Positions 30,053-33,780 of a stretch of DNA of 64,000 bases are shown here, piece by piece. Location: the IMG/VR virus record IMGVR_UViG_3300017716_001697, positions 1-64,000 of that record. One strand, 5' to 3'. The stretch is from a virus. Taxonomy: Duplodnaviria > Caudoviricetes. The notes below the pieces were generated by a model. The model was not told the origin of the DNA. It ran no database searches and saw nothing but the letters and a program-made list of their open reading frames with translations. The translations under genes were made by a program, and so were the position numbers. How positions within the stretch are numbered: the first letter of the stretch is position 1; every line of letters starts with the position of its first letter.

Positions 30053-30526
30053 ATGAACAAGATATTCGCACTATCGATTGTTATAAGTTTATTGTGCCAT
30101 ATCGGTGTTGTTATATCTGCGATTACACCGCAAGAACCGATTAGTACTAGTGTTACAGCGCCAGAGAACCGAATGGCAATTAAGCTATTACCACCAGAGC
30201 AGTTAGCAACGATACGACCAGCATTTTTAAAATCTGATGAATATTATAAGCCGACGCACCATCCGTATAGCAAAGAAGGGATTTGTGAAGGCAAGGATAA
30301 GAATTACATCGGTATTGGCATGATGATTCAGCCCGGAACACGGTTGGTAATTAATGTGCCAGAGATGTATCCTGCGTATCGAGCAGGCATTCGGGTAAAT
30401 GATGTCATTGTGGACCCGTACGGTCCTGTAATTGACCGTGCCGGTTATATTGAATTCGGGGTAGAACGGGACAATGTTATATCTCGTGTACGAATCAAGG
30501 CAGAAAAGATATGTTATACTGGATAG
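30053..30526 (+). CDS. Membrane-anchored PDZ-like protein
   Basis: N-terminal hydrophobic segment; PAYRAGIRVNDVI. Confidence 0.55.
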   Translation: MNKIFALSIVISLLCHIGVVISAITPQEPISTSVTAPENRMAIKLLPPEQLATIRPAFLKSDEYYKPTHHPYSKEGICEGKDKNYIGIGMMIQPGTRLVINVPEMYPAYRAGIRVNDVIVDPYGPVIDRAGYIEFGVERDNVISRVRIKAEKICYTG

Positions 30527-30554
30527 TTGACACCTTAACGCTAAGTAGTATAAT
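30527..30554 (+). promoter_or_regulatory. sigma70 promoter of tmRNA
   Basis: TTGACA-N16-TATAAT. Confidence 0.75.
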
Positions 30555-30560
30555 AAAGGT

Positions 30561-30848
30561 ACTGTTGTAATCCCTTCGAAGCGAAGGCAGGCAAGACGCG
30601 GGTTCGAATCCCGCCAGGTCCACCAAAATCATATTCGAAAAATAAAATCCATAACACGTTATGGTGTGAGTATGATTCTGATGGGCCTGCTCCGGAAATC
30701 GATTGCGTGAGATAGTAGAGACGGCAACACGAGAGGCGATGGACGTAATCCAAGCAAAACTAGTAAATGCAAACGCAGATACATTCGCTCTTGTAGCCTA
30801 AGAAACTCAAAGCTGAGGTAGGACTTACCTTATAACCAAAACAACCAA
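30561..30848 (+). ncRNA. ssrA: Circularly permuted two-piece tmRNA
   Basis: Acceptor piece ends GACGCGGGTTCGAATCCCGCCAGGTCCACCA (30625); hairpin spacer; coding piece starts GGGCCTG (30683); tag ANADTFALVA* at 30769-30801. Confidence 0.92.
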
Positions 30849-30849
30849 T

Positions 30850-30872
30850 GGGGGCTTCGGCCCCTATTTTTA
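30850..30872 (+). terminator. Terminator after tmRNA
   Basis: GGGGC-TTCG-GCCCC plus T-run. Confidence 0.85.
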
Positions 30873-32323: not shown

Positions 32324-32673
32324 TACAAATAACATATACCAAAGTAGCATAAAGAATGCGCTGCGAAAGCAGAGAGCCTGGCAAGAGCATTACCGGTAAG
32401 GCAATCTATGTTATTTGTATTGGATAGTGTGTTTAAATATTGAGTTTTATCTTGACTGCATATACATACCGAATTTACTGTTATGTCGCAAACTCAATAT
32501 TTAAACACAACCAATACACATGTCTGTAGAATAAAGGTAGTTCGGTAGCTTTCAACTTCGGGTGCTGGTTCGAGTCCAGACAGGCTGCTGTGTATTAGTA
32601 TGTTTATAAATTAAGTATAAAGGTGTTATTGCATACCCGTCTTTGAAATGGGTGGATCTACTTAATTTATAAA
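32324..32673 (+). ncRNA. Cluster of three 'stem-TA...C-stem' elements plus a degenerate tRNA-Glu-like RNA
   Basis: Inverted repeats 32324-32419, 32417-32517, 32603-32673; last holds D arm plus Gln(TTG) anticodon arm. Confidence 0.55.
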
Positions 32674-32680
32674 TAGATAG

Positions 32681-32753
32681 TACCGTGCCAAGGGTGCAAC
32701 TTTACCGCTCTTAGATGTAAGGGAGGTGGGTTCAATTCCTGCAACGGTAACCA
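32681..32753 (+). tRNA. Degenerate tRNA-Lys(CTT)-like
   Basis: TACCGT/ACGGTA, T arm, CCA, loop CTCTTAG. Confidence 0.45.
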
Positions 32754-32888
32754 ACACATTGTATCTGGGAAGAATTTACTGATCTCTTATTAGGGTATCT
32801 TTAATAATATTGTTGTAATTGTAGGTTCGATTCCTATAACAGTGTAATAGACAGGCAGATAAATATAGCTTTAACAAAGGAGAATAAA

Positions 32889-32921
32889 ATGCAATAGGTT
32901 TTAAATAACGGTCCACCATAA
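32889..32921 (+). promoter_or_regulatory. Minigene MQ*(amber)VLNNGPP*
   Basis: AAGGAG RBS then ATG CAA TAG GTT TTA AAT AAC GGT CCA CCA TAA. Confidence 0.55.
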
Positions 32922-32980
32922 AATTATTGAATGAGTCAGTAAGAAACACATTTGATTAAATTTTATAAAGGACAATAATC

Positions 32981-33352
32981 ATGGAATATATTATCAGTAA
33001 AGAAGAGTATCTAAGCGCAACAACAGCTTGGACAAAGATTGCAAACCGTACAGCTACGGATCACATTTTCTACAACGCTCTTCGCGGACACGACCTTAAA
33101 CGCGGTTTTAGTCCAATCAAAGAAAACAGCCCTAAATTAGCAAACGGTGCACAGCCATGGCAAGCATTTGATCAAGCCAAGCAGGACGCACGCTGGTCTC
33201 TACGTGCAAACGAAGGTTTACGCGGTGATACACCGGAACGTACTGCAAGGCGCGAATTAGAATACAAAGATCGTATAGAATCCCTAAGTAAAAAGTTCGG
33301 GGTAACTTTTACTCCAGAGCTAATTAATACATTAAGGGAATTATTAAAATGA
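32981..33352 (+). CDS. Hypothetical phage protein
   Basis: AAGGA RBS. Confidence 0.75.
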   Translation: MEYIISKEEYLSATTAWTKIANRTATDHIFYNALRGHDLKRGFSPIKENSPKLANGAQPWQAFDQAKQDARWSLRANEGLRGDTPERTARRELEYKDRIESLSKKFGVTFTPELINTLRELLK

Positions 33353-33669
33353 ATCCATATATCTACACATTCATCCGAGACGACATTTCGCCCGAGCAAA
33401 AGATCGTTCAACTCGGCCACGCAGCGTGGGAGGCAGGTTTGCGATTTAAGAAGCCGAATAAGATTGCAAGTCTTATCCTTTTACATGCAGATGATGAGGA
33501 TGACCTAGAGTCTATAGCACGCGAGTTAGACGAGAAAGGCATTGAATTTTACATGTTTTATGAGCCTGACAACATGATGGGCCACAGTGCTATATGTACA
33601 AGACCCATCACGACAGAATCTGAACGGCAAATATTCAGTAAGTGGGAACTATACAGCCACACCTATTGA
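33349..33669 (+). CDS. Peptidyl-tRNA hydrolase 2 (Pth2)-like protein
   Basis: IRDDIS...VQLGHAA...FYEPD...SAICTRP. Confidence 0.65.
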   Translation: MNPYIYTFIRDDISPEQKIVQLGHAAWEAGLRFKKPNKIASLILLHADDEDDLESIARELDEKGIEFYMFYEPDNMMGHSAICTRPITTESERQIFSKWELYSHTY

Positions 33670-33694
33670 CAGTAAACAAATGTGCATATACAAT
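33666..33694 (+). promoter_or_regulatory. sigma70 promoter of suppressor tRNA
   Basis: TTGACA-N17-TACAAT. Confidence 0.75.
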
Positions 33695-33704
33695 ATGCAC
33701 ACAT

Positions 33705-33780
33705 GCGCCTTTAGCTCAGTTGGTAGAGCAGCGGATTCTAAATCTGTAGGTCAGGGGTTCGAGTCCCCTATCGCGCACCA
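33705..33780 (+). tRNA. Amber-suppressor tRNA (CTA)
   Basis: GCGGA-TTCTAAA-TCTGT anticodon arm; canonical D and T arms; CCA; two acceptor mismatches. Confidence 0.8.

Follow-up and report, generated by a model that had tools for sequence, protein, structure and literature searches.

A conserved leader with an early amber stop before a Pth2-like gene of large phages: a candidate attenuator opened by suppressor read-through

Results

The leader and its setting in the genome

The window (the whole stretch of DNA analysed, 64 kb in length) is the first part of a 364,576-bp virus record (IMG/VR record IMGVR_UViG_3300017716_001697), with a G+C content of 41.6%. ARAGORN and Rfam identified 43 tRNA genes in the window and a permuted (two-piece) tmRNA of the betaproteobacterial type. 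The tmRNA (30513-30870) carries the tag peptide ANADTFALVA and lies 2 kb upstream of the leader described below; a permuted tmRNA occupies the same relative position in the related loci L003, L005, L007 and L010. A search of a phage collection for a close or near-identical cultured phage found none.

The genome uses the standard code, and TAG terminates 53 of its 352 long open reading frames (ORFs). Reading TAG as a sense codon raised the coding coverage from 0.74 to 0.78 (TGA, 0.79; TAA, 0.85), and junctions with coding sequence on both sides numbered 2 for TAG versus 14 for TAA. A genome-wide recoding of TAG (code 15) was rejected on the small gain in coverage and the lack of an excess of in-frame TAG.

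Table 1. Features of the leader region and the adjoining suppressor tRNA gene, in window coordinates.
Feature	Position	Strand	Sequence, extent or basis
ATAAATA box, candidate late-type promoter element	32859-32865	+	23 nt 5' of the leader ATG
Shine-Dalgarno sequence (SD) of the leader ORF	32877-32882	+	AAGGAG, 6 nt 5' of the ATG; read from the sequence
Leader ORF, first part	32889-32897	+	ATG CAA TAG (M-Q-amber); ATG 32889-32891, TAG 32895-32897
Read-through extension	32898-32921	+	GTT TTA AAT AAC GGT CCA CCA TAA (V-L-N-N-G-P-P-stop), in frame
Predicted hairpin	32911-32973	+	5' arm GUCC 32911-32914, then 32918-32933 including the TAA; 3' arm 32949-32966 and GGAC 32970-32973; pairs 32911-32914:32970-32973 and 32918-32933:32949-32966
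123-aa protein gene (gp123 family)	32981-33352	+	ORF; first gene after the leader
Pth2-like gene, 106 aa	33349-33669	+	ATG overlaps the stop of the 123-aa gene (ATGA)
Sigma-70-like promoter (candidate)	33666-33694	+	TTGACA-17 nt-TACAAT, directly 5' of tRNA-CUA; read from the sequence
Amber suppressor tRNA, anticodon CUA	33705-33780	+	ARAGORN; Rfam tRNA, 63 bits

The original prediction described an AAGGAG element followed by ATG CAA TAG and an in-frame read-through to Pro-Pro-TAA, with a Pth2-like gene and an amber suppressor within 900 nt. The sequence reads exactly in this way, and both downstream genes were found at that distance (Table 1). Between the end of the leader frame and the ATG of the next gene lie 59 nt. 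Copies of the ATAAATA motif seen upstream of the leader number 97 on the + strand of this genome and 35 on the - strand. In 36 of 49 unique short leaders the box ends 23-32 nt (median 27) 5' of the leader ATG. We infer that the box is a promoter by its likeness to the T4 late promoter TATAAATA; its position suggests a late-type promoter that places the leader at the extreme 5' end of the message.

Taken alone, the leader pattern is not above chance. Both strands of the genome together hold 63 mini-ORFs consisting of an SD, ATG, one to six codons and TAG, 25 of them with an in-frame extension of 4-12 codons, and comparable mini-ORFs end in TAA or TGA in 69 and 53 cases, respectively. Other amber stops of this kind before long ORFs of this genome were not found above the TAA/TGA background. 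An Rfam scan returned no family at the leader, its matches being the tmRNA and tRNAs only. The significance of the leader derives solely from its conservation in relatives.

Just upstream of the leader, three degenerate tRNA-like elements stand in tandem (32520-32846), flanked by long AT-rich inverted repeats. The element at 32520-32588 was called as tRNA-Glu, with an Rfam score of only 22.5 bits, and those at 32681-32753 and 32756-32846 were called by ARAGORN only at lowered thresholds.

Proteins encoded behind the leader

The 123-aa protein belongs to phrog_22448, and its homologues follow the leader in most relatives. The sequence matched no Pfam family, and its confident all-helical AlphaFold model (pLDDT 88) had no fold match in the PDB. 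Residues F43, P45, K52 and G56 are invariant in the family.

The 106-aa protein matched Pfam PF01981 with E=0.003 and 18.2 bits, below the gathering cut-off of 23 bits. Its AlphaFold model (pLDDT 91) was compared with known structures by Foldseek, and the top 12 matches were all Pth2 proteins or structural-genomics homologues of the same fold (E 3e-5 to 5e-4; TM-score by query 0.73-0.79; probability 1.00). The matches include 1rlk, 1q7s (Bit1), 2zv3, 1xty, 3erj and 1wn2. The motifs K-I-V-Q-x-x-H-A and E-P-D, which we take to be those of Pth2, are conserved. By its model, the 106-aa protein has the Pth2 fold and is a putative peptidyl-tRNA hydrolase. PTH2 has been noted in jumbo phages and proposed to act in ribosome rescue, with no mention of an early stop (PMC7824862).

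Conservation of the early stop among relatives

To collect relatives, the 106-aa protein and its alignment were used as queries against IMG/VR and JGI metagenomes, which gave 101 loci; 83 of them, each with at least 600 nt upstream, were informative. A gate was defined as an ATG preceded by an SD, closed by a stop after 2-9 codons and continued in frame by a short extension. At the equivalent site, 78 of the 83 loci have such a gate, and one locus is indeterminate. The four loci without a gate are GC-rich and carry no tRNA-CUA. In relatives the leader precedes the same set of genes, namely the 123-aa protein, the Pth2-fold protein and the suppressor tRNA, and every related leader has an SD of the GGAG/AGGA type at matching spacing.

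Counted once each, the gates number 65: 51 belong to short detached leaders and 7 to long ones, and the remaining 7 are fused to the Pth2-like ORF. As their first stop, 61 gates use TAG, three TGA and one TAA. This stop most often comes after two codons (47 gates; range in this set, 2-6), and in loci L087 and L089 it comes after nine. The second codon is not fixed, being Q, M, L, K, S, T or I. Leaders of the window's branch conform to M-x-TAG-[VI]-L-N-N-[GS]-P-P-stop, and those of the other large branch to M-M-TAG-[VI]-Y-[FL]-[ND]-S-[ST]-stop. A check for a conserved M-x-TAG...PP-stop leader thus had a mixed outcome: the amber codon is kept, whereas Pro-Pro is conserved in one branch only.

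The read-through frame and its end

The extension is in frame in all relatives. Between the window and locus L011, 4 of its 21 bases differ, all of them at synonymous third positions, and the Leu codon is TTA, TTG or CTT across relatives. In the read-through frame pN/pS was 0.36 and 0.53, and the other two frames gave 0.70-1.84 (1.14 and 1.84 where the read-through frame had 0.36), a comparison that is partly circular in that the leaders were grouped by peptide. RNA pairing alone can explain part of this conservation. In the consensus fold the second Pro codon has no pairing partner, yet its CC is kept and its third base varies. Leaders gated by TAG terminate in TAA (46 cases) or TGA (7 cases) and never in TAG (0 of 53).

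Pro-Pro-stop ends the leader of the window and 12 unique seven-codon leaders, with differing third bases, and G-P-P also occurs inside long leaders. About half of the unique leaders belong to the Pro-Pro branch. Endings in the other large branch are S-S, S-T or T-S, and three leaders end in S-P. Distant leaders that differ in their nucleotides and SDs have Pro-Pro as well, and leaders of the N-S-S branch do not. Pro-Pro probably serves as an accessory pause and is not the core of the device.

The leader of the window contains the bases CGGTCCACCA, and a reading of their CCACCA as a tRNA-like or tmRNA acceptor end was considered. This end is not conserved, relatives having GGTCCGCCA, GGTCCTCCC or AGTCCATAA, and positions 32850-32921 gave no tRNA or tmRNA call at lowered ARAGORN thresholds and no Rfam match. 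The reading was rejected, bearing out an earlier suspicion that the resemblance is coincidental.

Correspondence between the stop and a suppressor tRNA

The tRNA-CUA behind the Pth2-like gene is the only suppressor tRNA in the genome. Judging by the near-consensus sigma-70 promoter sequence directly before it, this tRNA may be produced separately from the leader operon. Its acceptor stem contains the mismatches C.C and U.U at 5:68 and 6:67; 46 of 52 related suppressors have no mismatch in this stem. With two adjacent mismatches, read-through in the window may be weak, or the tRNA may be decaying.

Of 65 TAG-gated loci, 49 have a tRNA-CUA in the few kb of sequence analysed, as a rule 35-150 nt downstream of the Pth2-like gene. 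At locus L025, which is among the window's closest relatives (77% identical in Pth2), the leader stop is TGA and a tRNA-UCA follows 33 nt after the gene. The joint switch of stop and anticodon is seen at this one TGA/UCA locus, the one TGA leader with a tRNA in the sequence analysed; a pattern search for further UCA suppressors returned one unrelated contig, without a Pth2-like gene. Loci L012 and L064 have the same leader peptide with the stops swapped (TAA...TAG versus TAG...TAA). The TAA leader of L012 is located at the edge of a 34-kb fragment, on which 26 ordinary tRNAs and no suppressor were found. Locus L077 is an exception, with TGA serving both as gate stop and as terminal stop.

A purine after the stop is the classical context for efficient suppression. 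The base following the stop is a purine in all 16 gates that were not selected by that base (13 fused to Pth2 and 3 internal ambers). The residues aligned to the internal ambers vary (K/R/Q/D/E, N/F/H and Y/F).

Further tRNAs were observed at related loci. At L038 (1849-1998) an ochre-type tRNA (UUA) stands right behind the tRNA-CUA. The tRNAs of L003/L024 and L027 (L003:3455-3531 and L027:1091-1166) were called by ARAGORN as Arg(tct) and not as suppressors; that of L003/L024 has CUCUAAA in a 9-nt anticodon loop, that of L027 UUCUAAC. The tRNA of L011/L048 was called with a four-base anticodon (ctaa).

Pairing of the leader end with the next ribosome-binding site

The 3' arm of the hairpin predicted in the window (Table 1) holds the SD of the 123-aa gene. 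By itself this hairpin is not significant (z -1.12; 22 of 200 shuffles fold as well). In the consensus fold of the window's clade, 97% of the cells were paired, compared with 31-48% when the partners were slid; only one pair covaries, and GUCC:GGAC is invariant. For the N-S-S branch, RNAalifold gave no structure, the variable stem having been misaligned by MAFFT. We turned instead to opening costs and to duplexes calculated between anchored segments.

Complementarity between the end of the extension and the next ribosome-binding site (RBS) is seen in 48 of 48 leaders. The duplex had a mean energy of -10.0 kcal/mol, versus -4.3 kcal/mol for shuffles (mean z -3.05), and in 79% of the 48 leaders at most 5 of 200 shuffles surpassed the real duplex. 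When leader ends and RBSs were swapped between families, the energies were -4.6 and -5.1 kcal/mol, compared with -9.3 and -9.0 kcal/mol for own-family duplexes. The anti-SD arm is GUCC in the window's branch and UUCUUCU in the other. As computed evidence, the duplexes and swaps across families are stronger than the fold of the single clade.

With the ribosome modelled as an unpaired block, a simple thermodynamic sketch, we estimated the energy needed to open the next gene from -15 to +5. This cost was 9.4 kcal/mol in the free RNA, 9.6 kcal/mol with the ribosome at the gate stop and 3.5 kcal/mol with the ribosome at the terminal stop, where it dropped in all 48 leaders. The corresponding values for the window are 8.9, 8.0 and 2.5 kcal/mol. 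In the long leaders L019, L069 and L092 the read-through frame ends in a TGA that overlaps the ATG of the following gene; in L018, 2 nt separate the end of the frame from that ATG, and in L023 the frame continues directly into the gene. Together with the modelled opening costs, these arrangements point to a requirement of downstream translation for a ribosome that has moved past the early stop.

In the N-S-S branch, the hairpin loop (A5 columns 58-75, e.g. L006:2614-2630) contains the strongly conserved motif GCATTGCAATTTTGTT, and the stem around it covaries (GTTTGA/TCAAAC, ATTGAT/ATCAAT and ATTTAAG/CTTAAAT). The motif could serve as a binding site or take part in additional pairing.

Early stops within genes

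At seven unique metagenomic loci the Pth2-like ORF itself starts M-x(-x)-TAG, with an SD before that ATG. The same fused arrangement is found in the cultured Ralstonia phage RsoM2USA (M-L-TAG), where the Pth2-like ORF is unannotated and starts ATG-TTG-TAG, in Serratia phage BF (M-T-H-TAG), Pectobacterium phage CBB (M-A-Q-TAG), Acinetobacter phage ME3 (M-T-TAG) and Salmonella phage Arash (M-L-TAG), and in an uncultured phage of 595 kb. In these six, no Met occurs among the N-terminal residues inspected downstream of the TAG. Phages RaK2, XacN1, Xoo-sp13 and CM1 lack the gate.

Owing to the early TAG, the Pth2-like gene is omitted or shortened in the GenBank entries of L104 (RsoM2USA), L105 (Serratia BF), L108 (CBB) and L110 (Arash), and phrog_34073 (77 positions) appears to have been built on such shortened ORFs.

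In-frame TAG codons also occur in the middle of Pth2-like genes (L008:2998-3315; L014:2989-3321, for L014/15; and L033:517-834, also in L039, L040 and L043). They occupy three different positions, each time with a purine right after the stop.

Early stops were furthermore found in a second protein family (CxxxxC ... KIWxxIN..TNKLHRLTFS), with M-Q-TAG in L064:1094-1329, M-E-S-TAA in L012:3344-3690 and M-K-TAG in L096:1122-1500. Locus L012 uses TAA both in the leader and in this gated gene. A homologue of the second family was not found in the genome of the window. The sequences of these genes suggest that stop-gated genes may form a small regulon.

Discussion

Proposed mechanism

We propose that the leader is a translational attenuator opened by amber read-through, and assign this reading a probability of about 0.6. 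The original prediction of a leader that senses amber read-through is supported by the conserved stop, the link to the tRNA with its TGA/UCA switch, the fused gates and the pairing with the RBS. The transcript would probably begin just after ATAAATA, with the strong SD and ATG-CAA-UAG as its first feature. When release factor 1 reads the UAG, the ribosome would leave after two codons and the hairpin would stay closed, its last extension codons (GUCC...UAA and the 12 bases behind) pairing with the SD (GGAC) stretch of the 123-aa gene. When tRNA-CUA reads the UAG, the ribosome would pass through V-L-N-N-G-P-P to the UAA, unwind the 5' arm and free the RBS. The 123-aa protein would then be made, followed by the Pth2-like protein via the overlapping ATGA. 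The Pro-Pro before the stop may keep the ribosome in place longer. In this way the output of the operon would track the activity of the co-encoded suppressor tRNA.

This proposal builds on the sequence features, the conservation, the tRNA link, the complementarity and the Pth2 fold described above, from which we infer both that read-through occurs and that it acts in the direction of opening. As to why these proteins should be tied to a suppressor, one may speculate that Pth2 and the phage tmRNA nearby handle the consequences of read-through.

At even odds, the proposal can be widened to the orphan suppressor tRNAs of large standard-code phages in general. Such a tRNA would be a private trans-acting switch, and a stop at codons 3-10 of a leader or a gene would be matched to its anticodon (UAG with CUA, UGA with UCA and perhaps UAA with UUA). 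A small regulon (Pth2-like, gp123 and at least one further family) would then be translatable only with the tRNA present and charged. In the lineage of the window, the gate would have shifted to a detached leader acting as a riboswitch-like attenuator operated by read-through, with Pro-Pro-stop as a pause.

Alternative explanations

The leader might instead sense the activity of release factor 1 or the drop-off of two-codon peptidyl-tRNA, and so the demand for Pth, or read-through might repress the genes behind it. Drop-off of short peptidyl-tRNAs is high on two-codon ORFs (bar minigenes, Pth), a length shared by 47 of the 65 gates, and the gated gene has a predicted Pth2 fold; in addition, a TGATTA:TAATCA pairing round the next start codon could form once the hairpin of the window opens. 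We nevertheless consider such a leader unlikely. The second codon varies and leaders of 3-9 codons are possible, unlike in the tRNA-specific bar minigenes, and at L025 the type of stop follows the anticodon of the tRNA. Moreover, both the fused genes and the overlapping ATGA stops imply that downstream translation needs read-through, in line with the modelled fall in opening cost in 48 of 48 leaders with the ribosome at the terminal stop. The bar-like drop-off sensed by Pth that was part of the original prediction received no support from our tests. It is likewise conceivable, if rather more doubtful, that translation always ends at the UAG, the stop serving to keep ribosomes off an anti-SD hairpin that is controlled by a protein, temperature or RNA processing. 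Pairing can explain much, as the conserved extension codons coincide with the anti-SD arm (GUCC or UUCUUCU), and the loop motif of the N-S-S branch could be a binding site. What such control by RNA alone leaves unaccounted for is the choice of TAG in 61 of 65 gates when TAA is the commonest stop of the genome, a terminal stop that is always in frame and never TAG, the pairing of TGA with UCA at L025, and the unpaired second Pro codon, which keeps CC while its third base varies. It also does not fit the homologous gates that sit within real coding sequence.

A function of the ten-residue read-through peptide M-Q-X-V-L-N-N-G-P-P itself, unrelated to regulation, would agree with the mostly synonymous changes, with the pN/pS of 0.36 in the read-through frame and with the recurrence of [VI]-x-x-x-G-P-P in distant leaders with different nucleotides. 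We regard it as very improbable: leaders of the other large branch encode [VI]-Y-F-N-S-S instead, the long leaders run on for at least 20 more, poorly conserved residues, and the fused forms make no separate peptide. The probability that the leader is a chance mini-ORF without function is close to nil. The 63 comparable SD-ATG-TAG mini-ORFs of the genome would favour it, but it is already contradicted by the 78 of 83 informative relatives that keep the site together with its frame, stop type and pairing.

Significance and relation to known systems

Suppressor tRNAs are common in standard-code jumbo phages, and the conserved early stop would offer them a concrete natural target. If the attenuator opened by read-through is real, it would represent natural gene control by nonsense suppression and a new input for leader-peptide attenuation. 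To our knowledge, gene control by nonsense suppression has so far been mainly a matter of synthetic biology. A literature search returned no description of an amber-gated Pth2 or of a leader operated by a suppressor. The question can be tested in culturable phages (RsoM2USA, CBB, BF, ME3 and Arash). A practical consequence of the gate is that gene callers miss or shorten the Pth2-like gene in GenBank and apparently in PHROGs too.

The closest likeness is to leader-peptide attenuators (ermC, cat, cmlA and SecM-secA). Common to all is a short upstream ORF with its own SD near the regulated gene. In each case the next RBS is sequestered, here by prediction, by a hairpin with its 5' arm inside the leader or directly after it, and a ribosome at the leader end opens this hairpin, here in a model. 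In those systems a drug or an arrest peptide holds the ribosome, whereas here passage of the early stop by means of a suppressor tRNA would decide. The likeness is one of mechanism and implies no homology. Engineered amber-suppression switches (reviewed in PMC6412442) similarly set the expression of a target through suppression of an early UAG; the leader would be their natural counterpart, conserved across many large phages.

Recoded phages with code 15 (TAG = Gln; crAss-like, Lak and others) also encode a tRNA-CUA, and in-frame TAG has been proposed to tie certain of their genes to this tRNA (bioRxiv 10.1101/2021.08.26.457843, PMC9523058). The phage analysed here differs in using the standard code; the only programmed TAG found in it is a single leader codon, which would act via an RNA switch. 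The jumbo phages XacN1 and RsoM2USA likewise keep the standard code and encode many tRNAs, among them a tRNA-CUA. For XacN1 no target gene of the suppressor tRNA was identified (PMC5852040), and the paper on RsoM2USA names none (PMC8504454); in contrast, a conserved target is proposed here.

The early in-frame stop recalls prfB (release factor 2), where a UGA senses the decoding of that very stop. There a +1 frameshift reports on the gene's own release factor, whereas the leader would rely on read-through by a tRNA to regulate the Pth2-like and 123-aa genes. The bar minigenes of phage lambda (AUG-AUA-stop) share the two-codon ORF, the strong SD and the context of peptidyl-tRNA hydrolase; their toxicity depends on one tRNA species and on a deficiency of host Pth, unlike the present leaders, in which the second codon varies, 2-9 codons precede the stop and a conserved frame continues beyond it.

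In conclusion, by the defining features of each, the leader is not an erm/cat/SecM attenuator, not an instance of phage recoding and not a prfB-type device. The analysis contributes the detached form of the leader with its predicted anti-SD pairing, the opening-cost model, the long leaders with overlapping stops and the stop swaps.
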